A stretch of DNA of 41,361 nt, from NCBI GenBank assembly GCA_034660735.1, contig JAYEJQ010000056.1:1-41361 (forward strand), read 5' to 3'. The position numbers were made by a program, and so were the translations under genes. Source of the DNA: Patescibacteria group bacterium. Its GTDB lineage: Bacteria; Patescibacteriota; Patescibacteriia; JAACEG01. Positions 1 to 27,301 of the stretch are shown here, piece by piece (positions within the stretch are counted from its first letter, which is position 1; each line of letters starts with the position of its first letter). The notes under the pieces were generated by a model. That model was not told the origin of the DNA and did no database searches. It was given only the letters and a program-made list of their open reading frames with translations.

Positions 1-146
1 AAAAGAAAAAAGAAAAAGAGAAGAAAAGGAAAAGTTAAAAAAACTTTTTGAAGGTCTTTTTTAAAAAGTTTTGAATTTATAAATGTTTCTGAAAATTTAT
101 TTAGTACTGGGGTAGGCGTAGTGAAAGCGAGGGTTAATAGCCCGTG

Positions 147-343
147 CCAATGCTTTGCATTGGAAATTTCAAGGACACAAGAAACAAGGACACAAATAAA
201 TTAAAAATTTCAATATCCAAATTTTAAATTGTTTGGAATTTGAGATTTGATTATTGAAATTTATTTGTAATTTGCCACCCTAATTGGTGGTCACCCGCAA
301 GGGTGATATCTTGAAATTTGGAATTTCTGCTGTAAAGCAGTGG
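147..343 (+). repeat. 23S intervening sequence (helix extension) at about E. coli position 650; contains repeat module copy 1 (164-269)
   Basis: Non-rRNA sequence between conserved gagggttaatagcccgtgcc and ggcgtgtcttataaacaagacccgaaacc. It is closed by the pairing gtgcc/ggcgtg. The 5' arm is A/C-rich and the 3' arm G/T-rich. Confidence 0.75.
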
Positions 344-741
344 CGTGTCTTATAAACAAGACCCGAAACCGGGTGATCTAACCATGGCCAGGATGAAGTC
401 CAGCGAAAGCTGTATGGAGGTCCGAACCCACTAGTCGTGCAACACTAGGGGATGAGCTGTGGCTAGCGGTGAAATTCCAATCGAACTCGGTAATAGCTGG
501 TTCTCCTCGAAATAGCTGTAGGGCTAGCCTCGGATAAATTGAAGTATGGGGGTAGAGCACTGAATGGGGCTCGGGGGAGCAATCCTACCGTCTCCAACCA
601 AACTCCGAATACCATATTTTTTACTCCGGGAGTTAGACTGTGGGGGCTAAGCTTCACAGTCAAAAGGGAAACAGCCCAGATCGCCATCTAAGGTCCCTAA
701 ATTTATACTAAGTGTGAAAAGTGGTGAGACAACTCAAACAA

Positions 742-772
<31 letters not shown>

Positions 773-870
773 TAAAGAAAGCGTAACAGCTCACTGGTCA
801 AGTCGTCTTGCGCTAAAAATGTATCGGGGCTAAGTATAATACCGAAGATGCGAGTTGATGCGAAGCATCA

Positions 871-1004
871 GAAATTTCAAAGACACAAGAAACAAGGACG
901 CAAATAAATTAAAAATTTCAATATCCAAATTTTAAATTGTTTGGAATTTGAGATTTGATTATTGAAATTTGTTTGTATCTTGTTGCTTGGAATTTGGAAT
1001 TTCT
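871..1004 (+). repeat. 23S intervening sequence in helix 45 (E. coli ~1170); contains repeat module copy 2 (872-977)
   Basis: Lies between accgaagatgcgag... and ...gcggtagaggagcattctg, the E. coli CACCGAAGCUGCGG...GGGUAGGGGAGCGUUCUG context. 872-977 matches 164-269 with 3 mismatches in 106 nt by eye. Confidence 0.8.
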
Positions 1005-1310
1005 GATGTTTTGCATCAGCGGTAGAGGAGCATTCTGTTTGCGTTGAAGCCATATCGCGAGGTATGGTGGAGCGGATAGAAGAGAGAATGTTGGCATGAG
1101 TAACATAAAGACAGGTGAGAACCCTGTCCACCGTAAGCCTAAGGTTTCCTGGGCAACGTAAATCGACCCAGGGTTAGTCGGTCCTAAGGCGAGTCTAGTG
1201 TAGTGCTAGGGTAGTCGATGGATAAGCTGGTTAATATTCCAGCACCACTTTTAAATGCTAAAAAGATGCGTGGTTTAAAAGATTAAGCATACTATGGTTT
1301 GTGTGTTTTT

Positions 1311-1447
1311 CGTGTCTCACTTTCGTTTGATACGACGTAGAATAACGTAGACTAAACGTAGATTAATGCAGAATAATAATTTATTTCTGCGTAGTTCGGC
1401 GTAAAGTCAACGTAGTTCAGCGCCGTGGCAAGCGGTAGCGAGACGCG
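1311..1447 (+). repeat. Hairpin element H, copy 1 (137 nt), inserted in the 23S domain III variable region
   Basis: cgtgtctc...gagacgcg long imperfect palindrome, near-identical to 2119-2253 and 2511-2647. Confidence 0.85.
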
Positions 1448-1643
1448 GAGAAAAGGCTGCGCTACGGCAAAGCTTATTTAATTAAATAAATTACCTAGAA
1501 AAGTTTTTTTGGCTTCAGTTTAATAGTGTCCGTACTAAAACCGACACAGGTAGGCGAGGCGAGTAGCCTCAGGTGAACGAGAGAACCTTTGTTCAGGAAC
1601 TAGGCAAAACAACGGCCGTAATTTCGAGATAAGGCCTGTCCAG

Positions 1644-1990
1644 CCAATGCTTTGCATTGGAAATTCCAAATCCAAAATCTTAAATCACAAATAAATTCAA
1701 AATTAAAAAATATTGTTATTCCGAACTTAATTCGGAATTTGCCCGATTGCCTTGCATTAATTGAGGCGGGTCTGTCATTACTATTTACTATATTATGATT
1801 AAGATAGATAAAACTTTAAATATTATAGTTTATCTTATTGAGTAGTATTTAGTCGGCGGTAAGCGCAGATCCTGAAACAAGTTCAGGATGACAGGTTTTT
1901 TAAAAAGTTTATAATTAAATATTTGAATTTTAATTATTGTAATTTATTTGGAATTTAGAATTTGTAATTTGGTGCTTCCGATGCAGAGCA
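1644..1990 (+). repeat. Large (~350 nt) 23S intervening sequence at about E. coli 1710-1750, with a nested family-A element
   Basis: Lies between conserved ggccgtaatttcgagataaggc and gactgtttagcaaaaaca. An A/C-rich arm (1663-1712) faces a G/T-rich arm (1900-1975). The 23-nt junction gccaatgctttgcattggaaatt (1643-1665) is identical to 146-168. Confidence 0.75.
1713..1893 (+). mobile_element. Family-A MITE-like palindromic element, copy A1, nested inside the 23S insertion
   Basis: Terminal hairpins ttgttattccgaacttaattcggaat and atcctgaaacaagttcaggatgaca. The internal block tgcccgattgccttgcatta...ggcgg..tctgtca.tac is shared with 38540-38585. The block actatattatgattaagat is shared with 4550-4558 and, inverted, with 5078-5096. 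Confidence 0.7.
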
Positions 1991-2118
1991 GCGGTTTGGA
2001 TCGCAGCTAAAGACCCTGAGTGACTGTTTAGCAAAAACATAGCTCCCTGCTAACTCGCAAGAGGATGTATAGGGGGTGATGCCTGGCCAGTGTCCGAACG
2101 TTAAGGAAGGGGGTTATT

Positions 2119-2253
2119 CGTGCCTCACTATCGTTTGACACGACGCAGAATAAGGCAGACTAAACGCAGACTAATGCAGAATAAATTTATTTTTGCGTAG
2201 TTCGGCGTAAAGTCAGCGTAGTTCAGCGCCGTGGCAAGCGGCAGCGAGGCGCG
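2119..2253 (+). repeat. Hairpin element H, copy 2 (135 nt), inserted in the helix 68 region (E. coli ~1860-1880)
   Basis: cgtgcctc...gaggcgcg. Flanked by conserved gtccgaacgttaaggaaggggg and gaagcgcggatgaacgccggcgataactataa. Confidence 0.85.
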
Positions 2254-2510
2254 GAGAAGCTTCTGACTGAAGCGCGGATGAACGCCGGCGATAACTATAA
2301 TCGTCCTAAGGTAGCGAAATTCCTTGTCGGGTGAGTTCCGACCTGCACGAATGGCATAACAACTTGGGGACTGTCTTAACAAAGGACTCGGTGAAATTGC
2401 AATACGAGTAAAGATGCTCGTTACCCGCGGCTGGACGAAAAGACCCCGTGAAGCTTTACTACAGCTTGATATTGGATTAGGGTTATGCATGTTCAGAATA
2501 GGTGGGAGTT

Positions 2511-2647
2511 CGCGTCTCACTATCGTTTGACACGACGCAGAATAACGTAGACTAAACGCAGACTAATGCAGAATAATAATTTATTTCTGCGTAGTTCGGC
2601 GTAAAGTCAACGTAGTTCAGTGCCGTGGCGAGCGGCAGCGAGACGCG
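2511..2647 (+). repeat. Hairpin element H, copy 3 (137 nt), in the L1-stalk region (E. coli ~2110-2180)
   Basis: cgcgtctc...gagacgcg, between conserved aataggtgggag and gagataccaccc. Confidence 0.85.
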
Positions 2648-2698
2648 GACACTAGTGAGATACCACCCTTGTATATTTTTAATCCTAACCCTGCGCCG

Positions 2699-2838
2699 TT
2701 ATTGGCTACTAAATAAAATTTTTAATTTTTAATTTTGTAATTTTATAAATAATTTTTAATGCTTAAATTTTTTAAAAATAATTTTATTTAAATGTTTAAA
2801 AATTAAAAATTATAAAATTGGAAATTTAGTATTCAATA
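2699..2838 (+). repeat. Extremely AT-rich 23S intervening sequence in the helix 79 region (E. coli ~2200-2225)
   Basis: Lies between cctaaccctgcgccg and ccggtgcgggaacagtatctggtggg. Closing stem ttattggctactaaat / atttagtattcaata. Confidence 0.7.
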
Positions 2839-3127
2839 CCGGTGCGGGAACAGTATCTGGTGGGTAGTTTGACTGGGGCAGTGACCTCCTAAAGAGTAAT
2901 GGAGGTGTTTACAAAGGTTGGCTATTCCGGGATGGAAATCCGGAAGATAGTGCAAACGCATAAGCCAGCTTTACTGCAAGATTTACAAATCGAGCAGTTG
3001 CGAAAGCAGAAGTTAGTGATCCGACCGTTCAATATAGGATGGCGGAAGCTCAACGGATAAAAGCTACTCCGGGGATAACAGGCTAGTCTGGTCCAAGAGT
3101 TCACATCGACGACCAGGTTCGGCACCT

Positions 3128-3973
3128 CAACATATCGGGGCGCCATCTCGAGTAATCGAGTAAATAAATTTGGCTTATAACGGTGGACTCCATAATTAAT
3201 TTAGCCTATAATATATATTAAATATTTAAATATATAAAATTATGGACAATACCGTGGGAAGTCTAACTCAATATCAATTATCAATCATCATTGGTTCAAT
3301 TTTAGGCGATGGATATATTAGGCAAATAAAAGGAAGAAAAGACGCTTTTTTAGAAATCAATCATTCTATAAAAGCTAAAAAATATGTAGACTGGAAATTT
3401 GACGCCTTAAAAAATATATGCAAATCACCGCCAAAACAAAGAATTATTGATGAAAGAAGAACGGCTTATCGTTTTTATACTAAACAACATAGTGAATTAA
3501 GCGCTTTGCTTAAGTTGTTTTATAAAAACAAAAGAAAGATAATACCGTCTTCATTAGTATTAAATCCGCTAATTTTAGCAGTTTGGTTTATGGACGATGG
3601 AAGCAAATCAAGAAAATATGATGTTTATCTTAATACTCAGCAATTTTCATTAAATGACCAAAAAGCACTTCTTAAAAGATTGCGTGATTTAGGACTCAGA
3701 GCAAGGTTAAACAAAGATAAAAAATATTACCGCATACGATTTTTAAAAGAGAGTATTTCTAAATTAAATGAAATTATTTCGCCTTATGTAATAGAGTCTA
3801 TGAAATACAAATTGAGTTATGACCCCGTAGAGACTTGATTTTAAAATCAGAGTTCCGCAAATGCGCGGAGCTAATACGCCAACTCCGTTTATTGATAAAA
3901 ATGGAAGAAGATATAGTCCATGCCATTAGTAATAATGGAAAGTAATTCCGAATTTACGGGATGAAATAGACAG
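3128..3973 (+). mobile_element. Group I intron in 23S rRNA, inserted after the residue equivalent to E. coli U2500 (peptidyl-transferase centre)
   Basis: Joining ...ggttcggcacct (ends 3127) to cgatgtcggctcgtcc (starts 3974) restores the conserved GGCACCUCGAUGUCGGCUC. The 5' exon ends in U and the intron ends in G (gacag). A candidate guide sequence ggggcgcc (3137-3144) can pair with ggcacct, giving a U-G wobble at the splice site. The core-like string gaagatatagtcc is at 3907-3919. An ORF sits in the intron. Confidence 0.8.
3242..3838 (+). CDS. LAGLIDADG homing endonuclease (double-motif, 198 aa), intron-encoded
   Basis: Two LAGLIDADG-type motifs: IIGSILGDGYI near the N-terminus and LAVWFMDDGS at about residue 112. 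Located inside the 23S intron. Confidence 0.85.
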   Translation: MDNTVGSLTQYQLSIIIGSILGDGYIRQIKGRKDAFLEINHSIKAKKYVDWKFDALKNICKSPPKQRIIDERRTAYRFYTKQHSELSALLKLFYKNKRKIIPSSLVLNPLILAVWFMDDGSKSRKYDVYLNTQQFSLNDQKALLKRLRDLGLRARLNKDKKYYRIRFLKESISKLNEIISPYVIESMKYKLSYDPVET

Positions 3974-4041
3974 CGATGTCGGCTCGTCCTATCCTGGGGC
4001 TGAAGAAGGTCCCAAGGGTTTGGCTGTTCGCCAATTAAAAG

Positions 4042-4085
<44 letters not shown>

Positions 4086-4208
4086 CTATCCGCCGTGGGC
4101 GTTGAAATTTGAGAAGGCGCATTCCTAGTACGAGAGGACCGGAATGCATAAACCTCTAGTGCACCAATTGTTCTACCAAGGGCATCGTTGGGTAGCTATG
4201 TTTAGTTT

Positions 4209-4241
<33 letters not shown>

Positions 4242-4498
4242 GTCTTTAAGATTAGATTTCTCAGATCTCCCAGAGACTATGGGATTGATAGGCCGTATGT
4301 GTAAGTTTGGCAACAAATTTAGCAGAGCGGTACTAATAGATCGTTTTTTTCTCCGCGCTTTTCTGTTTGAAAAGTTGTGGAACTATAAGAATGTCCAGTT
4401 TTGGCGCTCGTTAACGCGTTTATAATTTCGGATTTCAGATGTCGGATTTCAGATTTGGAATTTTGAAAATTATTTTTTATATTGATATATAAAAAACA

Positions 4499-4575
4499 TT
4501 GTCATTCTGAATTTATTTCAGAATCTGTGTTTGTAATTCACTATATTATGATTAAGATTAGTAAAATTTTAAATT
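4499..4575 (+). mobile_element. Family-A element, copy A2 (left half only) in the 23S-5S spacer
   Basis: ttgtcattctgaatttatttcagaatctgtg...cactatattatgattaagatt. No matching right terminus. Confidence 0.55.
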
Positions 4576-4687
4576 TATAATTTTAAATTTTAAATCAATT
4601 TTAAATTTTTAAATGACTAAAAATAATTTTTAAAAGATAATTTAAAATTTGTTTATTTTATTTTAATTTCATTTCAAATTAAAAATT
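4567..4687 (+). repeat. AT-rich direct repeat C, copy 1 (upstream of 5S rRNA)
   Basis: ttttaaatttataattttaaattttaaatcaa...ataatttaaaattt.tt.att...tttcatttcaaatt..aaaaatt recurs at 5289-5390. Confidence 0.6.
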
Positions 4688-4729
4688 CCAAATTCAAAAT
4701 CTCAAATTACAAATTTAATTGTTTTTAAT

Positions 4730-4840
4730 GTCTTCGTGATTTTAGCGGAAGGGGTACACCTGATCCCATCCCGAACTCAGAAGTTAAGCCTTTTAGCACC
4801 GATGATACTGCTTTGCGGGAAAGTAGGCCATTGCGGAGAC
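4730..4840 (+). rRNA. rrf: 5S rRNA
   Basis: Contains cctgatcccatcccgaactcagaagttaagcc. Helix I pairs gtcttcgtga with ttgcggagac. Confidence 0.9.
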
Positions 4841-4894: not shown

Positions 4895-4983
4895 TTGACT
4901 ATTGAATAAAAATTTTGTAAGATAAAAACATAAATTTGCAATTATCAATTTGACAATTTGACAATCAATTTTTTAAATCTATA

Positions 4984-5131
4984 TTGTCATCCTGAATTTA
5001 TTTCAGGATTTATGTCTGTTATTAGTTGAATATTACTCAGCAAGACAAACTATAATATTTAAAGTTTTAATAATCTTAATCATAATATAGCGAGTAGTAA
5101 TAATAGATCCTGAAATAAATTTAGGATGACA
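4984..5131 (-). mobile_element. Family-A element, copy A3 (complete; interior inverted relative to A1)
   Basis: Termini ttgtcatcctgaatttatttcaggat and atcctgaaataaatttaggatgaca. Flanked by an A/C-rich arm (4928-4972) and a G/T-rich arm (5136-5190). Confidence 0.7.
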
Positions 5132-5197
5132 GTTTTGAAAATTTAATCATTGAAAATTTATTGCAAATTGCCAAATTGGTAATTGAAAATTAAATTT

Positions 5198-7620: not shown

Positions 7621-7787
7621 TTTTGAATTACGAAACACAAAAAATTTTGTCATTCTGAGGCGATAGCCGAAGCCACGCCTCGCGGGTGGAAATGATTTTA
7701 AAATAATCTAATTAGCATTAAAGCAGATTTTTCGCTCCCGATGGTCGCTCAGAATGACATGATTTTTGCATTTCGTAATTCAAGGTA
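7621..7787. mobile_element. Family-A related palindromic element, copy A4 (core 7647-7759)
   Basis: ttgtcattctgag...ctcagaatgaca termini. Outer inverted flanks ttttgaattacgaaacacaaaaaa / tttttgcatttcgtaattcaa. The left flank matches the left flank of A5 (20298-20322). Confidence 0.65.
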
Positions 7788-7811
7788 ATTTAAAATTTAA
7801 AATTGATTTTT

Positions 7812-7870
7812 GGGGACGTAGCTCAGTTGGTTAGAGCGCTCCGTAGTCCTACGGAGAGGTCGCCGGTGGT
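7812..7870 (+). pseudogene. Truncated tRNA-Asp-like copy (5' acceptor, D-arm, altered anticodon arm, variable loop, 5' T-stem only)
   Basis: The acceptor/D-arm segment (7812-7838) differs at two acceptor positions, and the variable-loop/5' T-stem segment matches, the tRNA-Asp 23 nt downstream. The anticodon arm is replaced by ctccgtagtcctacggag (7-bp stem, 4-nt loop). The 3' T-stem and 3' acceptor strand are missing. Confidence 0.7.
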
Positions 7871-7893
7871 TTATCATTACAATTTATTTTTAT

Positions 7894-9128: not shown

Positions 9129-9301
9129 AGATTTACTGCATAATAAGTTGTGTGGCGAGATTTTTAGATTTTTAGGCAATTTTTAAAAATTTTATAAGTA
9201 TATTTCGTAGTCCTACAGAGGGCGTTGAAAAATTTGACCAAAATATATCTGTCCGCCTTTAGAGGAGAAATCGCAACAGTAAATTATTATGTAATAGTTC
9301 T
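9129..9301 (-). mobile_element. Family-B MITE-like element, full-length copy (inverted relative to 37249-37430)
   Basis: Degenerate TIRs agatttactgcataataa / ttattatgtaatagttct. The interior is collinear with the reverse complement of 37249-37430 (e.g. aaatttgaccaaaatat..ctgtcc.cctttagagg). Carries the hairpin variant ttcgtagtcctacagag (9204-9220). Confidence 0.65.
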
Positions 9302-9368
9302 AACATACTTATAATTTCAGATCTGCATTTTATGTAATATTTTGCATTTTTGAATTTTTTTTAAATTT

Positions 9369-15091: not shown

Positions 15092-15174
15092 TTATCTATG
15101 TTTTTTTTGGTGAATATAAAAAAATTGACAGAAATTATTGATTGTTTATAATAAAAATAAAAAACAATAAAAAT

Positions 15175-15645
15175 ATGAAAGCAAAAATACATTTTTACAA
15201 ACGGGATAATATAAATACAGACGAAATTATTCCAGCGCGGTATTTGAATTGCGACAATGAGGCTGAATTAGCAAAACATGCGATGGAGGATATTGACAAA
15301 GATTTTACGCAAAATGTCCAGCAAGGAGATTTTATTATTGCGGGAAAAGATTTTGGATGTGGATCTTCGCGCGAGCACGCTATTTGGGCGCTTCGCGGAG
15401 CAGGCGTAAAAGGCATAATTGCTAAATCTTTTGCGCGAATTTTTTATCGCAATGCGATTAATAACGGTTTTTTAGCAATTGAATGCTCGGAATTAAACGA
15501 TGATTTAAAAACAGGCGATGAGATAGAAGTAAACTTAGAACAAGGATTTTTTACTGTTAACGATAAAAAATACAATTTTTCGCCAATTCCAGAATTTGTG
15601 AAAAAGATTATGGATAAAAAGGGATTGTTAAATACTATTGAATAA
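15175..15645 (+). CDS. leuD: 3-isopropylmalate/(homo)aconitate dehydratase small subunit (short LeuD/HacB type)
   Basis: GCGSSREHA and FYRNAINNG motifs. The ATG at 15175 is preferred over the TTG track start at 15142. Confidence 0.8.
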   Translation: MKAKIHFYKRDNINTDEIIPARYLNCDNEAELAKHAMEDIDKDFTQNVQQGDFIIAGKDFGCGSSREHAIWALRGAGVKGIIAKSFARIFYRNAINNGFLAIECSELNDDLKTGDEIEVNLEQGFFTVNDKKYNFSPIPEFVKKIMDKKGLLNTIE

Positions 15646-15691
15646 AATTTATTTTTTAACAAGTGGTAAAAATTAAATTAATTAACATTTT

Positions 15692-16756
15692 ATGGACAAA
15701 AAAATTTGCGTTATCAATGGTGATGGCATTGGTCCTGAAGTTATGGCTGAAGCCATTAAAGTTTTAAATAATATAGCTAAAAAATACGGACATAATTTTC
15801 AGTATGTTGAAGCGCTGGCTGGCGGAGTCGCATGGGATGAATGCGGAGAGCATCTTCCAGAGAAAACTTTAGAGATTGCCAATGACAGCGATGCGATTCT
15901 GTTCGGATCAATAGGAGGACCTGTTTCAGACCAAGATAAGCCAAAATGGAAAGATTGTGAGAAGAACGCTCTATTGGCAATGAGAAAATATTTTGACCTT
16001 TTTACTAATCTACGTCCATCAACTGTCTTTAAGCCTTTAAAAAATATTTCAGTGCTTAAGCCAGAACTCGTCGGAAACGGTTTTGACATTCTAATTATAC
16101 GCGAGCTCACAGGAGGCATCTATTTTGGCGGACATAAGACCAAAAATGGCGTTGCTGAGGATATTATGAAATATTCCGAAGCAGAAGTTAGACGCGTCGC
16201 GAAAGTAGCATTTGAAGCGGCAATGAAAAGAAAAAAGTTTTTAATCTCCGTTGATAAAGCTAATATTTTAGATTGCTCTGTGCTTTGGAGAAAAGTAGTA
16301 AACGAAGTTGCCGAAGATTATCCGCAAGTTAAACTCCAGCATATGTATGTTGATAACGCGGCAATGCAGCTTGTTAAAAATCCGCAAGAATTTGATGTGA
16401 TTGTCACAGGAAATATGTTTGGAGATATTTTATCAGACCTATCTTCAACTTTCGCGGGATCGCTTGGGTTGCTTGCGTCAGCGTCTTTAAATGAATCTAA
16501 TTTTGGAATGTATGAACCGAGCGGAGGGTCGGCTCCTGATATTGCTGGGAAAGGAATCGCGAATCCTATCGCGCAAATTCTTTCAGTGGCAATGATGCTG
16601 AAATATTCGTTTGGATTAGAAAAAGAATCAGATAATATTGAGCAGGCGGTAATTAAAATTTTAGAACAAGATTATCGCACAGGAGATATTTGGGAGCAAG
16701 GATGCCAAAAAATAGGGACAAAACAGATGGGTGATAAAATCTGCGGGAATATATAG
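15692..16756 (+). CDS. leuB: 3-isopropylmalate dehydrogenase family (beta-decarboxylating dehydrogenase)
   Basis: 354 aa. GDGIGPEV, LIIRELTGGIYFG, NMFGDILSD motifs. Confidence 0.85.
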   Translation: MDKKICVINGDGIGPEVMAEAIKVLNNIAKKYGHNFQYVEALAGGVAWDECGEHLPEKTLEIANDSDAILFGSIGGPVSDQDKPKWKDCEKNALLAMRKYFDLFTNLRPSTVFKPLKNISVLKPELVGNGFDILIIRELTGGIYFGGHKTKNGVAEDIMKYSEAEVRRVAKVAFEAAMKRKKFLISVDKANILDCSVLWRKVVNEVAEDYPQVKLQHMYVDNAAMQLVKNPQEFDVIVTGNMFGDILSDLSSTFAGSLGLLASASLNESNFGMYEPSGGSAPDIAGKGIANPIAQILSVAMMLKYSFGLEKESDNIEQAVIKILEQDYRTGDIWEQGCQKIGTKQMGDKICGNI

Positions 16757-16818
16757 AATCATTTTAACACAATAACATAATAACATTTAAACATTATAAT
16801 CATACTAAGAAAAACAGA

Positions 16819-16857
16819 CACGGCTTTTGCAATATTGCAAAAGCCGTGTTTTATTTT
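16819..16857. terminator. Bidirectional intrinsic terminator between convergent leuB and asd
   Basis: Perfect stem cacggcttttgcaa/ttgcaaaagccgtg, with A-run and T-run flanks. Confidence 0.7.
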
Positions 16858-16884
16858 TAATATATTTAAATATTTTACAAATTA

Positions 16885-17886
16885 TCAATTTATAATTAAT
16901 TCCGCGATTTGGACTACGTTCAGCGCTGCGCCTTTTAAAATCTGATCCCCGCATACGAAAAATTCTAAACCGTTTTTTCCAAAAATCAGACTGTTCCTTA
17001 TTCTGCCAACCTCAACACTGTATTTTCCGCTGGCTGTTAAAGGCATAGGATAAACGCGATTTTTAATGTCATCGCGAATTTGAATTCCGTCCGCGTTTTG
17101 AAAAATATTTTTAATTTTTCGTATATCAACCTTTTTTTCTGTTTCAACTAAAATGCTTTCTGAATGTGCTCGCATTATTGGAACCCTAACACAAGAGCAA
17201 GAGATTTTTATATTTTCATCATTGAATATTTTTTTTATCTCCCAGACAACCTTCATCTCCTCTTTTGTATAGCCATTTTTCTGAAAAACATCAATATGCG
17301 GAATTAAGTTAAAGGCGAGCGAATGCTGAAAAATTTTATTGCCTGTTTTCTCGCCTTTAAGAAATTTTGTTGTTTCAATTTTTAATTCCTCTATACCTTG
17401 TGCTCCAGCCCCGCTTGCGGCCTGATAAGTTGATATAATAATTTTTTTTAATCCATAATTTTTATATATTTGCCATAATGGAATTGAGGCAATAGCTGTT
17501 GTGCAATTTGGGTTTGCGATTAATAACGAATTTTTTACAGCATCTGGATTTATCTCAGGAATAACTAACGGAATATTTTCATCATATCTAAAAGTTGAAG
17601 AATTATCAATCACGATACAATTATTGGAAGTCGCTTTTTTTGCATTAAGTTTTGACCATTCTCCGCCGATCGCAAAAAACGCAATGTCTAATTTATTGTA
17701 ATCAGCGCGATTTGCGTTTCGCAGGATAATTTCGCCGAACTGGGTTTTGATTTTTTGTCCAGCGGATTTTTCAGACGCGTATAAATTTAAAAATTCAATA
17801 GGAAATTTTCGTTCAAATAAAACATTCAAAATTTCCTTTCCAACCATTCCAGTAGCGCCAAAAATTCCAATTTTATATTTTTTCAT
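16885..17886 (-). CDS. asd: Aspartate-semialdehyde dehydrogenase
   Basis: 333 aa. GATGMVG Rossmann N-terminus and NPNCTT active-site Cys context. Confidence 0.9.
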   Translation of the reverse strand: MKKYKIGIFGATGMVGKEILNVLFERKFPIEFLNLYASEKSAGQKIKTQFGEIILRNANRADYNKLDIAFFAIGGEWSKLNAKKATSNNCIVIDNSSTFRYDENIPLVIPEINPDAVKNSLLIANPNCTTAIASIPLWQIYKNYGLKKIIISTYQAASGAGAQGIEELKIETTKFLKGEKTGNKIFQHSLAFNLIPHIDVFQKNGYTKEEMKVVWEIKKIFNDENIKISCSCVRVPIMRAHSESILVETEKKVDIRKIKNIFQNADGIQIRDDIKNRVYPMPLTASGKYSVEVGRIRNSLIFGKNGLEFFVCGDQILKGAALNVVQIAELIIN

Positions 17887-17892
17887 AGTTTT

Positions 17893-19239
17893 TTATTTTA
17901 TAAAAATTTTATGAAAACCGCGCATTACTTTTTTCATTTCGTCGGTTTTAACGATCGCTTCTAACCGTGCGCAATTTTTATATGGAAAAGCGCCAATTTG
18001 CGGATCAGGGCAAATTTTTATCAAAGTGTTATTGAAAGTGCTTACTGTTTTCCAGTCTAAATTTCCAATCAACATAACCATATTTACTGGTGACGCGCTT
18101 ATTTTACAATTTTTCTTTTTTATTTCTTTAATCGCTTTTTTCAAATTTTTATTTCTGCTACCAACAACTATCTGTAAACTATCGCGCGTATTCCGTATTA
18201 AAACCATATTAAGCGCAAGCAAATTTAAAATCTTGCTTATTTCAAAAAGAAATCCGTGCTCATTAATTCCATTACCGCTAACAATTATCATTGCCAGCCC
18301 TTTTTTAAAACCGATGATTTTCGCGCCTTTTTGTTTTGAACTATCCGCTTTTATTAAAGTTTTGTTATTATAATTAATAATTGACGCGACTTCAACGGTT
18401 GTCCGTGTTTTTTCAACATATTGCATAGCTTTATTATGGATAATTTTGCCAGCCTCTTCTGCTTCAATATAACTTAAACAAGATACTGTTTTTGTGTTTT
18501 TAACAATTCTCGGATCGGCAGATAAAACTCCATTGACATCTTTCCATAAAATAATTTTATTGGCTTTTACAGCCGCGCCAACAAAACAGGCAGTCGTGTC
18601 TGTTCCGCCACGTCCCAAAATCGTTGTTCGGTTATTTTTTGTAATTCCAGTAAAACCAGCAATTACTGGAATTGATTTTATATTTTTTAATTTCGCGCGA
18701 ATATTTTTCGCAGAAATTTTATAATCAATATTTGCGTTAAGATAATTGTCGTCCGTAATAATCGGAATATTCTCTGCAAATAATTTTTGCGAGAATAGAT
18801 TACTAGAATTTAAAAATTCAGTAAAAAAAATGGTTGACATTTTTTCGCCATAAGATAAAATTTTATCGCGGAAAATATCCAATGAATTAAATTTGCGTAT
18901 TTTTTGAAAATCAATTTCAAGATTTTTTAACAAATTATCAATTTCAGTAATGGCGATTTGCTGATTTTTTTTATCCATTTTTACGAAGTTAATCATCTTA
19001 ATATGCTTCGTGCGGATTTTTTCAATAGATTTTTTCTCAATTTCTTTATTTTTCTTATATAATAATAGATTTTCTAAAATATCAGTCACGCCATTTAAAG
19101 CTGAAATAACAACAATCGGATAAAATCCGTTTTCAATCTGTTCCTTAATCTGTTTTTTTATTAATAAAATAAATTTTTGCGTAAGAATTCCACCGCCAAA
19201 TTTATTTACTATGATTCTGTTTTGTGTTTTTGTTTTCAT
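17893..19239 (-). CDS. Aspartate kinase
   Basis: VNKFGGG N-terminus, GRGGTDTTA motif, ACT-like C-terminus. The ATG at 19239 is preferred; the track start at 19296 is TTG and would overlap the upstream gene by 50 nt. Confidence 0.8.
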   Translation of the reverse strand: MKTKTQNRIIVNKFGGGILTQKFILLIKKQIKEQIENGFYPIVVISALNGVTDILENLLLYKKNKEIEKKSIEKIRTKHIKMINFVKMDKKNQQIAITEIDNLLKNLEIDFQKIRKFNSLDIFRDKILSYGEKMSTIFFTEFLNSSNLFSQKLFAENIPIITDDNYLNANIDYKISAKNIRAKLKNIKSIPVIAGFTGITKNNRTTILGRGGTDTTACFVGAAVKANKIILWKDVNGVLSADPRIVKNTKTVSCLSYIEAEEAGKIIHNKAMQYVEKTRTTVEVASIINYNNKTLIKADSSKQKGAKIIGFKKGLAMIIVSGNGINEHGFLFEISKILNLLALNMVLIRNTRDSLQIVVGSRNKNLKKAIKEIKKKNCKISASPVNMVMLIGNLDWKTVSTFNNTLIKICPDPQIGAFPYKNCARLEAIVKTDEMKKVMRGFHKIFIK

Positions 19240-19246
19240 AATTTTC

Positions 19247-20254
19247 TTATTTTTCCAAAATAGTCTCTTTAATCTTCTGCCCAAAATGCCTTCCAACTCC
19301 GCGCTCTTGTAAAAATACTAAAATTTTATCGCCCTTTTTTAATTTGACAACGGAAATATATCCGTTGTCTTTTTTGGTTAGGCGGATTGTTTCTGCGTTT
19401 TGCATTATCAAACTTATATTTCTGTTTTCAAATTTTGCTTTAACAATCAGCATCGGTCTTTTTTCAATTTTTACTCGCCCGATAATCGCTTGCTCGGTAT
19501 TTCCTTTGGAATCAATAATTAACGACTTGTCTCCGCTTTTTAATTCAGCGAGGTATTTTGTTTTATCGTTCGGCATTCTAATATAAGCATGCGCGCCGCC
19601 AGCATTTACCCTGAAAGCGCGCGGATCGCAATATGGATTTTCAACATTTTCATTATAAACCAAAAACATAGCGCTTGACGAATCGCCGACCAACATCCCT
19701 TGTCCTGGGTTTAAAATTGACGAAGTATCAATTACAACTCTGTCGCCGATGCCAAGCGCTTCTACGTTTGTAATTTCAGCTTCAACTAATTTTAATTTTT
19801 CGTTTTGCGTTTCTTTAATAAGTCCGCCGACTTTTTTGATTTCATTTAAGTCGCTTGTTTCTAATAAAATTCCGTCCGCGCCAACCTCCATAGTTTCTAA
19901 CGCTAATTTTGCTTCTTTGTAATTTTTAACACATTGAATTATATTTGAAGTTTTAGAAATTAAATTTTCTAATGGAATAATTGTCCATTCTTTATTTTTA
20001 ACAATAATCGGGATTTTACCTTGATATTTAATCGCTTCATCTTCTGATTCTTTTGTTGTTAAAAAAACTTCCGCAACATTTTTATTTATTTTTAAATCTG
20101 CTTTTTCGCTATCGGAAATAATTAAAGTCCGTGATAATTTTTTAATCTCATCAATATTTTCAGGTTGAACATAAATCGCTTCAAATCCGCTTTCAATCGC
20201 TAAAGTAGCCAACTTTTTATCCCAAAAAGGGAGTTTATACCAAAATTTTTTCAT
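19247..20254 (-). CDS. 3-dehydroquinate synthase II (archaeal type)
   Basis: Collinear with my recollection of M. jannaschii MJ1249: WTIIPLENLI, GDRV.IDT, ENPY...R.FRVNAG..HAY, KTKYL.ELK.GD, GRVKIE.RP, QNAETIRL, RHFG..IKETI.EK. Confidence 0.85.
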   Translation of the reverse strand: MKKFWYKLPFWDKKLATLAIESGFEAIYVQPENIDEIKKLSRTLIISDSEKADLKINKNVAEVFLTTKESEDEAIKYQGKIPIIVKNKEWTIIPLENLISKTSNIIQCVKNYKEAKLALETMEVGADGILLETSDLNEIKKVGGLIKETQNEKLKLVEAEITNVEALGIGDRVVIDTSSILNPGQGMLVGDSSSAMFLVYNENVENPYCDPRAFRVNAGGAHAYIRMPNDKTKYLAELKSGDKSLIIDSKGNTEQAIIGRVKIEKRPMLIVKAKFENRNISLIMQNAETIRLTKKDNGYISVVKLKKGDKILVFLQERGVGRHFGQKIKETILEK

Positions 20255-20297
20255 AAATTTTAAAAGTTAAAATAAATATTAAGATATAAAAATATTA

Positions 20298-20484
20298 TTT
20301 TGAATTACAAAACGCAAAAAATATGTCACCCTGAATTTATTTCAGGGTCTGTCATTACTATTCGCTGAATTATAATTGGATGAATAAAATCTAAATTTTT
20401 ATTTTATACTGCTTAAATATAATATAGTAAATAGTAGATACGAATCCTGACCCCGCTGCTCGCGAGCGGCGGGGCAGGATGACA
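20298..20484. mobile_element. Family-A element, copy A5, in the spacer between ADH synthase and DHQ synthase II
   Basis: tgtcaccctgaatttatttcagggtctgtcattac...caggatgaca. The right-end hairpin is replaced by the GC-rich cctgaccccgctgctcgcgagcggcggggcagg. The string aaatattaagatat is present on both sides (20274-20287 and 20527-20540). Confidence 0.65.
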
Positions 20485-20540
20485 ATACTTGAATTAAAAT
20501 TATTTTTTTAGTTATTTAATTATATAAAAATATTAAGATA

Positions 20541-21293
20541 TTATTGCGCGTAAACCGCGCTTCTTATTTTTTTAATCATAGCAGGGACATCGTCGGCTTG
20601 AAAAGCGTTGCGTCCGACTGAAACTCCTGCGGCTCCTACTGAAACACAATCACTAATAGATTTTAGCATTGTTTCTTCGCTTCCTTTTGCTCCGCCAGCG
20701 ATTACAACAGGAATATCAACACCATCGCAGACTTTTTTAAAACTTTTCGCGTCTCCTGTAAATGGAACTTTTACGATATCCGCTCCGAGTTCAAACGCTA
20801 CGCGCGCGGCATGCTTTACTTTTTTCGTGTCTGTATAATTAATAATCTTTCCATCAACTTCATCTCGCGGGTACATCATAGCAAGCAGAGGCAAGCCGAC
20901 TTTTTCGCACTCATAAGAAATTTTTCCTAAATCCGCCAACATTTCAGGCTCGTATCTGTTTCCTAAATTTATATGAACTGAAACTCCTTGCGCGCCCATC
21001 TCTTTTATTTCTTGTGGAGTTGCGATTAAAACTTTTTTTAACACAACGCCCATTCCTGTTGAAGCGGAGCAATGGATAATTGTCGGAAGATCGCCGATAA
21101 CCATTTTGTATTTTTTGTAAATTCCTTTATGGATTACAATCGCGTCAACTCCTCCTTCTTTAACGTTCGCGATAGTTTTTTTTATATCAATTAATCCGTC
21201 AATCGGTCCGTCGCTAACCCCATGATCCATTGGCAGAATAACAGTTCTGCCTTCAGGGCTGATAATTTTGTCCAGCAAATTTTTTTTGTCCAT
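20541..21293 (-). CDS. 2-amino-3,7-dideoxy-D-threo-hept-6-ulosonate (ADH) synthase, class I aldolase DhnA family
   Basis: Collinear with my recollection of MJ0400: PMDHGVS.GPI.GLIDI.KT, AMMYPR, HAAR...ELGADIVK, GAAGV.VGRN.FQ.DDV. Confidence 0.8.
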   Translation of the reverse strand: MDKKNLLDKIISPEGRTVILPMDHGVSDGPIDGLIDIKKTIANVKEGGVDAIVIHKGIYKKYKMVIGDLPTIIHCSASTGMGVVLKKVLIATPQEIKEMGAQGVSVHINLGNRYEPEMLADLGKISYECEKVGLPLLAMMYPRDEVDGKIINYTDTKKVKHAARVAFELGADIVKVPFTGDAKSFKKVCDGVDIPVVIAGGAKGSEETMLKSISDCVSVGAAGVSVGRNAFQADDVPAMIKKIRSAVYAQ

Positions 21294-21858
21294 AAAATTT
21301 ATAATTATATATTAAATTTTGACATATTTTATTTCCTTATTTTTTAACACTCCTTGACAATGGAGAGTCGGGGAGGGTTTTTTAAAAAATTTAACCCCTT
21401 AAATTATCTTTGTCAGGTGGGATTTAATATGAAATATGCTAAAGTTTAGTTATATAAATTAGAAAAACCTCTTAGTGAGGCTTTTGTTTTTTTTAGTTAT
21501 TTTATAAATTAACAATCGCCTCAAATAATAAAATTAAAAAAATAATAAGATACGAAAAAAGAGAAAAATAAATTTTCCCAAATATTAAATACAACTATTT
21601 TTTCTGCTTTAATTAAATTCATTATATATTTTAAATTTTTTGCGACTTTATAATATATTTTACTTCTTATTATATTTTTGTCAAATAATTGATTTTTGTA
21701 AAAGATAGTGCTAATATGTATATAAATTAAAATTTTATATAATAGATTTGCCGCATAATTAATTTCTATCGTGATTTTTTTTCCAAAAAACGGATAAGCA
21801 ATTTTGACCAAATTTTTCAAAAATTTTAACGCCTTCCGAAGCACTTTGGCGGACTTAT

Positions 21859-21930
21859 AAAATTGTTTGAAAAATTTGTCTCACCCCGTAGTCCTACGGG
21901 GCGTCACGAAACTAATTACGCGGCAAGTCT
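21859..21930 (+). mobile_element. Family-B element, right-half copy, ending 12 nt before the ilvB ATG
   Basis: aaaaatttgtctca-ccccgtagtcctacgggg-cgtcacgaaactaattacgcggcaagtct, collinear with 27227-27300 and 37355-37430. Confidence 0.6.
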
Positions 21931-21942
21931 AATTCTTATTTT

Positions 21943-23631
21943 ATGATTGGAGCAGATATTTTGTTAAAATCTTTATTAAAAGAAGGAGTAGAAATAATTT
22001 TTGGCTATCCTGGAGGAGTAACAATTCCATTGTATGACAAACTTAAAAATTATCCGCAGATTAAGCATATTTTAACGCGGCACGAACAGGGTGCCGCTTT
22101 AGCCGCTGACGGATATTTTAGAACTACTGGCAGGGTCGGGGTCTGTCTTGCCACATCAGGACCTGGCGCAACAAATTTAATTACTGGAATTGCTAACGCT
22201 TATATGGATTCTATCGGAATAGTCGCAATTACTTGCCAAGTTTCGAGCGCTCTTATCGGCTCGGACGCTTTTCAAGAAGTTGATATCACGAGAATTACAA
22301 AGCCGATAACCAAGCATAATTATTTTATTGATAATATTAATGATTTGCCTAGTATCGTAAACGAAGCGTTTTATTTGGCGTTAAGCGGACGACCGCGTCC
22401 AGTTCATATTGACATACCAGTAGATATTTTAAAAACCGAAGTTAAAAAATTCAATTATCCGTCAAAGGCAAGTTTGTCAAGTTATAGTTCTTTGCAAAAA
22501 ATTAGCAAGGAAGAAATAAAAAAAACTTGTCAATTGATTGAAAAATCCGAAAGACCTATTGTAATCGCTGGACACGGAATATCAATATCGCAAGCAGAAA
22601 CGGAATTAAAAAAATTTATTGAAAAAACGGATATTCCTGTTGTTACCACTTTGTTGGGAATTGGCTCGCTGTCTGAAAAGCATCCGATGAATTTTGGAAT
22701 GCTTGGAATGCATGGAATGGCTTACGCTAATTATGCCACGCATAATGCTGACTTAATTATTGGAATTGGAACTCGTTTTAGCGATCGCATCACTGGAAAC
22801 ATAAAAGAATTCGCAAAAAACGCAAACGTTATTCATATAGATATTGATCCTGCTGAAATTGGAAAAAATATTTCTGTAAATATTCCGCTTCTCGGAGACT
22901 GTAAAAAAATATTAATGGAACTGAATAAAAAAATTGTTCAGTTGTCGCATAGCGATTGGGTGATGAAAATTAAAGAACGGAAGGAGCAGACAGATTTGCA
23001 AAAAATAAAAAAAAGTTCAAGGATTGATAATAATAAATGCTTAATGGCGCAGGATATTATGCGTGAAATAGATTTACAGACTAAAGGCGAGGCGGTTATT
23101 GTTAGCGATGTAGGACAAAATCAAATGTGGAGCGCGCAATATTTTGAATATACAAAGCCAAACCAGTTTTTAAGCGCTGGCGGGCTTGGTTCGATGGGAT
23201 ACAGTCTGCCTGCTTCCATTGGAGCTAAATTTGGAAATCCAAAATCAGACATTTGGGCAATAATGGGAGATGGCGGTTTTCAGATGAATATGCAGGAGTT
23301 AGGCGTAATTATGGAACATAAATTGCCGATTAAAATTATAATTTTAAATAATGGATATTTAGGAATGGTAAGGCAGTGGCAGGAGATGTTTTTTGAAAAA
23401 AATTACGCCGCGACTAAATTAGCAAATCCAGATTTTATCCAAATCGCTAAATCTTACGGAATTGAAGCTTATCAAATAACTGAATGGATGGATGCTAAAA
23501 GCAAAATAAAAAAAGCCATCAATTCAGACAAGCCGATTTTTCTTGATTTCATAATTGGCGCTGAAGATATTGTTTTGCCTATGATTCCAACAGGGAATAA
23601 CCTAGGTGATATTATTGTTGAAAGGAGTTGA
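21943..23631 (+). CDS. ilvB: Acetolactate synthase large subunit-type ThDP enzyme
   Basis: 562 aa. GYPGG, TRHEQGA, TSGPGATN, GDGGFQMN motifs. No small-subunit gene adjacent. Confidence 0.85.
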   Translation: MIGADILLKSLLKEGVEIIFGYPGGVTIPLYDKLKNYPQIKHILTRHEQGAALAADGYFRTTGRVGVCLATSGPGATNLITGIANAYMDSIGIVAITCQVSSALIGSDAFQEVDITRITKPITKHNYFIDNINDLPSIVNEAFYLALSGRPRPVHIDIPVDILKTEVKKFNYPSKASLSSYSSLQKISKEEIKKTCQLIEKSERPIVIAGHGISISQAETELKKFIEKTDIPVVTTLLGIGSLSEKHPMNFGMLGMHGMAYANYATHNADLIIGIGTRFSDRITGNIKEFAKNANVIHIDIDPAEIGKNISVNIPLLGDCKKILMELNKKIVQLSHSDWVMKIKERKEQTDLQKIKKSSRIDNNKCLMAQDIMREIDLQTKGEAVIVSDVGQNQMWSAQYFEYTKPNQFLSAGGLGSMGYSLPASIGAKFGNPKSDIWAIMGDGGFQMNMQELGVIMEHKLPIKIIILNNGYLGMVRQWQEMFFEKNYAATKLANPDFIQIAKSYGIEAYQITEWMDAKSKIKKAINSDKPIFLDFIIGAEDIVLPMIPTGNNLGDIIVERS

Positions 23632-23635
23632 AAAT

Positions 23636-24592: not shown

Positions 24593-24601
24593 ACAAATTT
24601 T

Positions 24602-24931
24602 ATGCTTATACAATTCATTATAATTCTATTTTCGCTGTTTGCTATTTCTCGGCTTCAGAGTAAATTAAAAACCAAAGAAATTATTCTTAAAGAATTTTAT
24701 CTTTGGCTTTTATTTTGGGTAATTATTATAATTACTACTCTTTGGTTTAGAAAAACAGATATTATAGCAAAATTTTTTGGCGTTGAAAAAGGCGCGGATT
24801 TAGCTATTTATATTTCTATTATATTTTTATTTTATCTGCTATTTAAATTGATTGTGAAGATTAAGAAAATAGAACGGGACATTACTAAAATTACAAGAGA
24901 GATTGCAATTAAAAATTCAAAAAAGGATTAA
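24602..24931 (+). CDS. Small membrane protein, DUF2304-like
   Basis: 109 aa, three TM segments plus a charged C-terminal helix. Family assignment is from memory. Confidence 0.5.
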   Translation: MLIQFIIILFSLFAISRLQSKLKTKEIILKEFYLWLLFWVIIIITTLWFRKTDIIAKFFGVEKGADLAIYISIIFLFYLLFKLIVKIKKIERDITKITREIAIKNSKKD

Positions 24932-26289: not shown

Positions 26290-26331
26290 AATATTAATAA
26301 TGCAAAAATCAAAATTCAAAAATCAAAATAA

Positions 26332-27174: not shown

Positions 27175-27226
27175 AAGTTATTAGATTTGTTATGTAATAA
27201 ATTTCTACTGTAATTTTAATCTTTTT

Positions 27227-27300: not shown

Positions 27301-27301
27301 A

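Follow-up and report, generated by a model that had tools for sequence, protein, structure and literature searches.

How does one bacterial 23S rRNA gene come to carry the same long hairpin in three different helices, and do these hairpins stay in the mature rRNA or are they cut out of its precursor? The question is raised by a stretch of 41,361 nt (contig JAYEJQ010000056.1, assembly GCA_034660735.1), which is referred to as the window throughout. The host is an uncultured, Parcubacteria-type Patescibacterium (CPR) with a single 23S gene; its genome presumably measures about 1 Mb, as is typical of CPR genomes, such that approximately 4% of it (41 kb) is visible here. A chloroplast origin, suggested by AT-rich inserts in combination with a LAGLIDADG ORF, was excluded by genes of bacterial type and by relatives among the Patescibacteria.

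The 3' four-fifths of the 23S rRNA gene occupy positions 1 to 4356 on the forward strand (Rfam LSU_rRNA_bacteria, 1566 bits, the match lacking the first ~550 positions of the model), and the 5S rRNA is located 3' of it at 4732-4839. The conserved 23S blocks correspond to E. coli 668-2765, and the first base of the window falls within an AT-rich insertion of the gene. The visible part of the 23S gene contains at least nine insertions, and at least five insertions in the gene are AT-rich, among them those at 146-345, 853-1020, 1636-2022, and 2700-2842. An 11-mer, AAATTCCAAAT, has six exact matches in the window, all in the rRNA operon; they map to the H45 and H63 insertions, an insertion near E. 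coli 655, and a stem flanking the 23S-5S spacer.

Three insertions in this gene are copies of one hairpin, located on the forward strand at 1309-1449 (copy 1), 2117-2255 (copy 2), and 2509-2649 (copy 3). They measure 139-141 nt each, share a direct orientation, and are about 91-94% identical. A first-pass annotation, made from the letters of the window, had noticed the three copies inside the one gene; their ends, however, lie 2 nt further out on each side than it had claimed. Its estimate of about ten differences between copies 1 and 3 agrees with the 9 substitutions that we counted; copies 2 and 3 differ by 9 substitutions plus a 2-nt indel, owing to a loop deletion in copy 2, and copies 1 and 2 by 12 plus the indel. 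Altogether, 17 alignment columns vary among the three. Two cores of 21-22 nt have exactly three matches each, where 100 shuffles give an expectation of 0.00. Compared with the consensus, copy 3 carries three private changes and the other two copies six each; copy 3 is probably the ancestral copy.

Every copy folds into a single hairpin of 57 bp, with MFE values of -61.5 (copy 1, z -8.1), -66.7 (copy 2), and -68.9 kcal/mol (copy 3), and z-scores ranging from -7.9 to -9.3; each is able to fold locally into a rod of ~57 bp that projects from a helix tip. The longest uninterrupted helix comprises 10 bp, and in the duplex drawing conserved A-rich 1x1 mismatches interrupt the rod about every 5 bp. 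Its base consists of a 5' basal module, CGYGTCTCACTATCGTTTGACACG (2511-2534; also at 1311-1334 and 2119-2142), which pairs with a 3' basal module, CGTGGCRAGCGGCAGCGAGACGCGGA (2624-2649; also at 1424-1449 and 2230-2255). The distal 5' arm (2535-2576; also at 1335-1376 and 2143-2185) is built from about four tandem units of 10-11 nt (ACGYAGAMTAA), as had been proposed for units of roughly 10 nt; Tandem Repeats Finder reports a period of 10-11 and 3-4.1 copies, and complementary units build the 3' arm. The G+C content amounts to 44-50% in the hairpins, 47.7% in the 23S core, 11-31% in the other insertions, 19% in the 23S-5S spacer, and 31% in the genome.

The hairpins reveal neither coding capacity nor a known RNA class. 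Each of the six reading frames is either interrupted or short, and a chimeric query made from all six found no match among 5.8 billion proteins. No Rfam family matches the hairpin at gathering score, and at E <= 10 just a chance miRNA match appears; group I and group II intron models match neither at gathering score nor at E <= 10. A reduced identity to locus L010 just upstream, considered as a co-conversion tract beside an intron, merely reflects a variable helix.

Between the copies, two pairs are doubly compensated: 2123:2249 is C:G in copy 2 and T:A in copies 1 and 3, a covariation already noted in the first reading, and 2156:2216 is C:G in copy 2 and T:A at the equivalent 1348:1410 and 2548:2610. 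Eight more variable pairs carry one-sided changes and keep their pairing via G-U, G-C, or A-U. The sole broken pair is 2154:2218, in copy 2. The 15 substitutions break this one pair, where random placement breaks 6.1 +/- 1.8 (P(<=1) = 0.002); at pair 14:128, two changes turn one mismatch into another. In folding energy, the observed copies did not differ significantly from randomly mutated ones (P = 0.14), and the shuffle control for covariation, which is weak with three sequences, attained the observed value in 54 of 500 shuffles. Each copy contains 8-11 G-U pairs, which on the opposite strand become A-C mismatches, and the covariance model built from the copies scores 152-163 bits on the forward strand versus 64-74 bits on the reverse strand. 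The substitutions since divergence of the copies have kept the pairing in the rRNA sense, and on that strand only. Such G-U-rich, one-strand pairing argues for selection on RNA rather than on DNA, although the dominance of C-to-T changes among the one-sided substitutions could in part reflect transcription-linked deamination instead of selection.

The helices involved were assigned by Infernal alignment to the bacterial LSU model and by the empty sites of an insertion-free relative, L090. Copy 1 aligns on the long domain III hairpin at E. coli ~1471-1523, which we take to be H58, and replaces this helix; L090 has at this site a native helix of ~55 nt with a GGCAAAUCC loop, which is missing from the window. 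Copy 2 caps the apical loop of H68, where the 4-nt loop of the model has become a 135-nt insert and the native GC-GCAA-GC tip is replaced; the corresponding tip reads GGGGT-GCAA-GCTCT in L090 and GGUUAGCGCAAGCGAAGC in E. coli. The basal stem of copy 3 aligns to H78 in the L1 stalk, with H76 kept, at a position that holds just a C-UUCG-G stub in relatives. These placements bear out the domain III, H68, and L1-stalk locations given before. Relative to E. coli and the Rfam model the inserts amount to 135-141 nt, and the 23S core aligns normally on both sides of every copy. If kept in the ribosome, the three rods would lie on the L1-stalk side of the 50S subunit. A 'GGUUA...GAAGC' base shared among H68 insertions was discarded as a sign of homology, being native H68 sequence that is present in E. 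coli.

Outside this gene, copies of the hairpin were searched for at several levels. With filters off, the covariance model detected no further copy in the window, 37 kb of which is non-rRNA sequence, in agreement with the first-pass annotation. The model also had no match in 84 related loci (1.26 Mb). The distal 3' arm is the part of the element that varies between lineages; an exact 20-mer taken from it had no match in 185,579 GTDB species-representative genomes, which included the two closest MAGs (DAOWHA01 and JAGLTA01). A degenerate distal-arm 20-mer returned seven JGI metagenome and two IMG/VR matches of ~20 nt, which are chance matches and none of which fits the covariance model. The basal module had no match in IMG/VR, and blastn against plasmids and phages returned none. 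A spurious 130-aa ORF on the reverse strand (2128-2520), lying over the rRNA, retrieved many CPR 23S fragments with empty sites or other insertions; the hairpin peptide occurs in none of them, and an anchor-plus-module peptide query gave no match. Exact-protein look-ups for the source contig yielded a single Logan contig of 2.3 kb that contains no rRNA, and no contig derived from transcripts of the organism was found; the organism is present in Logan run SRR26901925. Within this scope, the previous proposal of an RNA-structured insertion confined to rRNA, be it an excised intervening sequence or a retained expansion segment, is supported: the copies all lie in the 23S gene in sense orientation, and their pairing is kept on that strand alone. 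Its rRNA specificity is shown for the 41 kb of the window.

A relationship to another lineage was found at the base of the hairpin. At the same H78 position, the 23S of a distant Patescibacterium, locus L092 (JGI 3300008020), contains CGTGTCTCACTATCGTTCGACACG, which is identical to the 5' basal module in 23 of 24 positions; the L092 contig ends within its insertion, leaving the 3' arm unseen. Patescibacteria 23S genes display a graded series at the H78 site, from C-UUCG-G over GUUCGAC-GCAA-GUCGGAC and a 70-nt hairpin to the 141 nt found here. The 23S of L090 is closer to that of the window than is the 23S of L092, and yet the element is missing from L090. Such a patchy distribution would be expected of a transferable element.

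Our overall best explanation, held tentatively and with slightly less than even confidence, is that a single structured rRNA extension, which originated at H78 and was copied within the gene, gave rise to the three hairpins as paralogues. The 24-nt basal module at the same H78 position in L092 argues for growth in place at H78 followed by within-gene copying. The extension would have arisen at the H78 position in a clade that lost the normal H78 and retains a small stub; loss of H78 is documented in Parcubacteria (PMC9297842). Inverted duplication and slippage of the 10-11 nt units would have lengthened the rod; growth of this type agrees with the tandem units of the arms and with an independent hairpin at H68 of L092, which is made of tandem units of 7-8 nt. 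The whole 141-nt hairpin would then have been copied at the DNA level to the apex of H68 and over H58. We suspect that template switching or gene conversion was guided by short UCG/CG(G)A homologies. The 3' basal module terminates in CGGA, as do the unrelated H68/H78 hairpins of L091, L092, L095, and L096. In an essential 23S gene, helix tips would be the only survivable landings. Given the base shared with L092 at H78, the element is probably not foreign.

A generic palindromic repeat of the MITE or REP type, dispersed genome-wide and moved by a transposase in trans, could also have inserted into the rRNA gene on three occasions by chance. In favour of this, the element is a palindrome with several copies and a patchy occurrence across lineages, ~4% of the ~1 Mb genome is visible, and the genome does possess a real dispersed palindromic family, with ends TGTCATYCTGAA...TTCAGRATGACA, members of which are found within the 23S gene, in its H63 insertion, as well as in spacers between genes. 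The hairpin itself, however, has no copy in the 37 kb of non-rRNA sequence, its three copies share one orientation, and no target-site duplication is visible at their flanks. The exact 20-mer is absent from the 185,579 genomes, no copy was found in plasmids or phages, and the IMG/VR module scan was empty. Furthermore, its G-U-rich pairing is functional on one strand only, and its basal module is common to a native-looking hairpin at the H78 position. Abundant intergenic copies in both orientations, named in the first-pass annotation as the finding that would speak for a generic repeat, were seen neither in the window nor in the relatives. We regard this origin as improbable. More improbable by far is an assembly artefact, by which a repeat was collapsed or misjoined into the rRNA gene. 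rRNA genes and repeats are hard to assemble, and in the closest relatives the contigs end within the 23S gene, but the copies can be told apart at 17 alignment columns, with compensatory changes peculiar to individual copies, each sits exactly at a helix apex with the flanking rRNA helices intact, and inserted hairpins occur at these H68 and H78 sites in other Patescibacteria contigs, too.

The fate of the hairpins is more finely balanced. Each copy is predicted to be transcribed within pre-23S. In a classical intervening sequence (IVS), RNase III would cut the hairpins from pre-23S and the ends would not be religated; the origin and the within-gene copying could be the same as proposed above. 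With the AT-rich insertions cut as well, the 23S rRNA would be split into roughly 8-9 pieces, which the helices around the cuts would keep together. In size and form the hairpins match what defines an IVS, namely an extra stem of 100-200 nt on a helix of the 23S (PMC8708148). CPR insertions are missing from transcripts according to the statement in PMC9297842 that summarises Brown et al. 2015, short CPR insertions were earlier suggested to be RNase III-processed IVSs (PMC9297842, PMC11270868), and rnc/RNase III is kept in CPR genomes (PMC12641178). The sporadic occurrence among relatives resembles that of IVSs. Conserved pairing fits an IVS equally well, since a harmless removable insert needs a self-contained, stable hairpin. 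On the other hand, the copies occupy H58, H68, and H78 and not the classical helices 25 and 45, a typical rather than strictly defining feature of IVSs. In G+C content they resemble mature rRNA, unlike the remaining inserts and the spacers of the operon, which are AT-rich, and the AAATTCCAAAT motif that AT-rich inserts share with the spacer stem is missing from them. Their helix runs reach 10 bp at most, with conserved mismatches in between, whereas 28 contiguous pairs form the base of the H45 insertion in this gene; RNase III is known, however, to tolerate mismatched stems. Excision would moreover leave pieces of 94 nt, 253 nt, and ~50 nt between 2023 and 2699, an extreme fragmentation for a bacterium. 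Excision by RNase III is a serious contender, but we place it somewhat below even. We slightly prefer retention in the mature 23S rRNA as bacterial expansion segments, to which we give an even chance. The hints, which are indirect and mutually correlated, are the core-like G+C content, the helix runs of at most 10 bp, and the missing motif; pairing conserved over the whole length and a basal module conserved across lineages may point in the same direction.

A stronger form of the retention reading is doubtful. In it, a self-propagating module confined to rRNA would have replaced the lost head of the L1 stalk (H78), would be retained, and would then have been copied to H68 and H58. If true, a minimal CPR ribosome would display three identical rods of ~57 bp with an estimated length of ~160 Å and A-rich mismatches at regular intervals, on which one protein might dock in triplicate. 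It would also constitute direct evidence that expansion segments spread by helix-to-helix copying, beyond growth in place.

Several known systems share features with these hairpins. Insertions are carried by 82% of CPR 23S genes, and the short ORF-less ones form a recognised, though uncharacterised, class (Tsurumaki et al. 2024, PMC11270868). Thus, the general phenomenon is already known, and the earlier remark that no equivalent described family was known has to be narrowed to the multi-copy form, of which we found no report. The hairpins agree with the definition of a CPR insertion (at least 100 nt, absent from E. coli at the position; Tsurumaki 2024), and, like the short insertions of the class, each is below 200 nt, contains neither an ORF nor a group I/II core, and is located at the apex of a stem-loop. 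In contrast, we found no report of one insertion in several helices of a gene, and none of a tandem-unit architecture or a conserved base; the published account of the class gives its frequent sites only in figures. 23S IVSs excised by RNase III are known from Salmonella, Campylobacter, Coxiella, and Leptospira (PMC8708148, PMC4990558, PMC2801512), and they have long been suspected of being mobile or of stemming from transposon remnants. Their stems are classically long and nearly perfect, the cleaved stem of the Coxiella IVS comprising 28 bp (PMC4990558). The hairpins resemble IVSs in that an extra stem takes the place of a helix tip, in their inverted-repeat ends, and in their sporadic distribution, and differ in having three paralogous copies at three other helices and an rRNA-core G+C content in a genome of 31% G+C.

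With expansion segments the hairpins share the outgrowth from helix tips on the subunit surface, an intact core, a conserved base with a variable distal part, and arms made of short repeats. Expansion segments occur in eukaryotes and Asgard archaea, H78, H63, H79, H25, and H45 being among the eukaryotic sites, and retained extensions are known in bacteria, e.g., mycobacterial H54a. Arms composed of short repeats are reportedly explained by the 'compensatory slippage' model of Hancock and Dover. To our knowledge, expansion segments are thought to grow in place, and copying between helices lies outside the standard picture. Palindromic selfish elements within functional genes, such as the Rickettsia palindromic elements, the GC clusters of yeast mitochondria, and the double-hairpin elements in mitochondrial rRNA genes of Allomyces, are comparable in that palindromes of 100-150 nt occupy structurally tolerated positions of an essential gene in several copies. 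Such families count tens to hundreds of copies genome-wide, whereas here three copies occur in one rRNA gene and one orientation, with a base apparently derived from a native helix.

The locus touches two long-standing questions, namely how rRNAs acquire helices and whether bacterial intervening sequences move. With one extension present in three helices at roughly 6-10% divergence, transfer between helices becomes directly visible, and the probable source site can be recognised by the homologous base that another lineage carries at H78. Since one sequence is common to all three sites, one experiment with a probe or with mapped reads could discriminate between retention and excision of short CPR insertions; the same experiment bears on whether a ribosome without the L1-stalk head rebuilt something there. 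If the hairpins are merely excised, they add modestly to the known set of CPR rRNA insertions.

Three copies of a single hairpin, 139-141 nt long, lie on the plus strand within one 23S rRNA gene (copies 1 to 3 at 1309-1449, 2117-2255 and 2509-2649), and differ pairwise by 9-12 substitutions and one 2-nt loop indel. Two core motifs occur exactly three times each, where none is expected. A covariance model of the three copies, searched without filters against the complete window, recovers these three alone, scoring 152-163 bits on the plus strand and 64-74 bits on the minus strand. The first-pass annotation had described a three-copy element without a further copy in the window, and both points proved correct. 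So did its account of about four arm units of roughly 10 nt, as Tandem Repeats Finder divides the 5' arm into about four repeats of ACGYAGAMTAA, each 10-11 nt long. Every copy folds into one 57-bp hairpin with a free energy of -61.5 to -68.9 kcal/mol and z scores around -8 to -9. In the duplex drawing, a 10-bp stem base (UUCGYGYCUC / GAGRCGCGGA) is followed by helical segments of 2-7 bp between 1x1 mismatches, which nearly always carry A on the 5' strand (A-C, A-G, A-A) and are identical across all three copies. At 14:128, both sides changed in copy 1 (A-C to U-U) and the position is still mismatched, a single case which hints that the mismatches themselves are conserved. Each copy contains 8-11 G-U pairs, which would give A-C on the opposite strand.

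The alignment of the copies has 17 variable columns. Two-sided changes are found at two pairs, 7:135 and 40:102 (U-A versus C-G), both in copy 2; eight one-sided changes keep the pairing, and one pair is broken. Scattering as many transitions and as many transversions as observed at random over the consensus, used here in place of the ancestor, breaks 6.1 +/- 1.8 pairs; only 0.2% of trials break one pair or none. Read on the sense strand, C-to-T changes make up 7 of 13 transitions, and transcription-linked deamination could favour them. A shuffle control for covariation, weak with three sequences only, gave 54/500, and an energy-based test for constraint was not significant (P = 0.14). The firmest evidence for constraint on the RNA is the two double changes, of which that at 7:135 is the compensatory covariation proposed earlier.

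Infernal alignments and comparison with L090, an insertion-free Patescibacteria 23S, agree with the sites originally assigned, i.e., domain III, helix 68 and the L1 stalk (H77/78 space). Copy 1 substitutes for a long domain III hairpin, presumably H58, that is kept in L090 and E. coli with its conserved GGCAAAUCC loop. Copy 2 stands in for the helix 68 tip GC-GCAA-GC: the sequence there is GGUUAGCGCAAGCGAAGC in E. coli, GGGGU-GCAA-GCUCU in L090 and GGGGGUUA-hairpin-GAAGCUUCU in the window. Copy 3 occupies the place of helix 78 in the L1 stalk, where H76 and the 3' strand returning to it are retained, while the 5' side of H77 and the entire H78 are missing. At this position L090 and two further Patescibacteria loci, L097 and L098, carry only a (C)C-UUCG-G(G) stub, consistent with the H78 loss published for Parcubacteria, for which lineage-specific loss of uL1 is reported too (PMC9297842).

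The bacterial LSU rRNA model of Rfam matches 188-4356 with 1566 bits, the first ~550 model positions being absent, and 5S rRNA follows at 4732-4839. In blastn against E. coli rrlH, conserved 23S blocks are split by large inserts. Guided by Infernal alignments and L090, we count at least nine insertions in the visible part of the gene, amounting to about half of its length: the three hairpins, 1 to about 107 (partial), 146-345, 853-1020 (H45), 1636-2022 (H63), 2700-2842 (H79), and 3129-3973 at about E. coli 2500. A second repeated family is AT-rich and comprises 150-274 (insertion near E. coli ~655) and 858-982 (H45), with 92% identity over 125 nt. Both copies fold as long hairpins, and the H45 copy has a base of 28 contiguous bp, resembling a classical RNase III IVS stem. 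The H79 insertion (143 nt, 11% G+C) consists of AATTTTT-type repeats. The 845-nt insertion at 3129-3973 contains an ORF (3242-3838) for a single-domain LAGLIDADG_2 endonuclease (Pfam E 2.7e-42); a group I or II intron core was undetected in it, even at E <= 1. The closest relatives of the window, L010 (MAG DAOWHA010000064) and L011 (JAGLTA010000008), are contigs that both terminate within the 23S gene. L010 begins at window-equivalent 3009, contains an exact empty site for this insertion with identical flanks, and shows 99.6% identity downstream of the intron site.

Insertions are reported in 82% of CPR 23S genes, with a maximum of 16 per gene, and short ORF-less non-intron ones are called uncharacterised (PMC11270868). 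The literature searched holds no account of one such insertion as paralogous copies across different helices, in line with the initial remark that no equivalent family was known to have been described. The hairpin does not qualify as a group I or group II intron nor, within the visible sequence, as a dispersed MITE or REP. Its structure suits an IVS as well as an expansion segment; the sole criterion separating the two is presence in mature rRNA. The original proposal of a structured rRNA insertion, either excised or retained, is supported.

From sequence features, we would give an even chance to the hairpins staying in the ribosome, on arguments that are indirect and mutually correlated. Their G+C content (44-50%) resembles that of the 23S core (47.7%) and differs from all other insertions (11-31%), the 23S-5S spacer having 19% and the genome 31%. 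Age is not the cause of this difference, since the AT-rich copies are similarly diverged. The longest helix run in the hairpins is 10 bp, versus 28 bp in the H45 insert, whose base is like the Coxiella IVS stem cleaved by RNase III (PMC4990558). The motif AAATTCCAAAT is common to AT-rich inserts and the 23S-5S spacer stem but not present in the three hairpins, and excision of all inserts would leave pieces down to about 50, 94 and 253 nt. Excision as an IVS is nevertheless quite possible, if short of an even chance: the hairpins look like a textbook IVS (PMC8708148), RNase III IVS identity has been proposed for short CPR insertions (PMC11270868), rnc is kept in CPR genomes (PMC12641178), and PMC9297842 cites CPR insertions as missing from transcripts. 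Any other outcome appears improbable.

AAATTCCAAAT (other strand TTGGAATTT) has six sites, in the rRNA operon only: 316-326, 992-1002, 1661-1671, 1946-1956, 4453-4463 and 4683-4693. They map to three insertions (H45, H63 and the one near E. coli 655) and to the stem 4432-4467 / 4679-4714 around the 23S-5S spacer. It also occurs within the H78 insertion of L092 (JGI 3300008020), near the contig end, and may be a shared processing-stem signal.

No further copy of the hairpin turned up in GTDB species genomes (exact 20-mer of the distal 3' arm), JGI metagenomes and IMG/VR (degenerate 20-mer), 84 related loci (covariance model), plasmids and phages (blastn), or protein searches. Among Patescibacteria 23S fragments, retrieved via spurious ORFs, the H68 tips of L091, L092, L095 and L097 carry unrelated hairpins of 100-148 nt; in that of L092, tandem units of 7-8 nt make up the arms and mismatches recur regularly, an architecture matching the window hairpin. 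Elements at the H78 position grade from C-UUCG-G (L090, L098) through GUUCGAC-GCAA-GUCGGAC (L096) and a 70-nt hairpin in L095 (UCCGCCCAG...CUGGGCGGA) to the 141 nt of the window. In L092 this position reads CGTGTCTCACTATCGTTCGACACG, with 23/24 identity to the consensus 5' base of the window hairpin; beyond this 24-nt module the interior is wholly divergent, and then the contig ends. The window has U-A at one pair of the module for which L092 has C-G; in L092, the module bases are able to fold alone into a 7-bp hairpin. The consensus is most nearly matched by copy 3. Judging from these comparisons, we read the copy at the H78 position as the probable original, grown from a small native stub, and those at H58 and H68 as secondary; the whole hairpin would then have been copied to both sites. 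Alternatively, a transferable element directed to the H78 site may have this module as its conserved end, given that the 23S of L090 is nearer to the window than that of L092, yet lacks the module. AT-rich unrelated hairpins occur at both H68 and H78 in L095 (ENA ERZ27247709 k141_1125238, reverse strand), at about 3900-4043 (~144 nt) and about 4295-4369 (~70 nt) in reverse-complement coordinates, with the shared terminus GCGGACAA.

The other 36 kb of the window hold close-set bacterial housekeeping and biosynthetic genes, and four tRNA genes were found in the window. A solute-binding protein directly 3' of the rRNA has 82-86% identity to proteins of two 'Parcubacteria/bacterium' MAGs, and all 80 related loci belong to MAGs of Patescibacteria type, some of them recorded under other names; thus, the host is a CPR bacterium. 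Biosynthesis encoded at 15142-29603 is richer than usual in CPR genomes, comprising LeuD/LeuB-like proteins, aspartokinase, aspartate-semialdehyde dehydrogenase, an archaeal-type 3-dehydroquinate synthase II with a DeoC-family aldolase, EPSP synthase, an acetolactate-synthase-like TPP enzyme, and IspG/IspH. Between tRNA-Val and tRNA-Asp, 7799-7880 resembles a tRNA 5' half (GGGGACGTAGCTCAGTTGGTTAGAGCGCTCCGTAGTCCTACGGAG...); it received no call by ARAGORN or Rfam and could be a pseudogene or an interrupted tRNA gene.

A dispersed palindromic family with ends TGTCATYCTGAA...TTCAGRATGACA has copies at 1705-1900, 4492-4585, 4977-5136, 20316-20377, 38507-38634, and probably 7640-7770. One is nested in the H63 insertion, and the rest are intergenic and occur in either orientation; the one located between tRNA-Val and tRNA-Asp has a weak, sub-threshold Rfam match to Wolbachia sRNA 46 (E 0.099). 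A 72-nt intergenic repeat (21860-21931 and 27230-27301, 86% identity), recurrent in several intergenic regions, carries a hairpin, CCCCGTAGTCCTACGGGG, together with the motif ...GCGRCAAGTCTA; related inverted pairs lie at 9228-9302 / 37248-37322 and 37227-37270 / 37409-37452.
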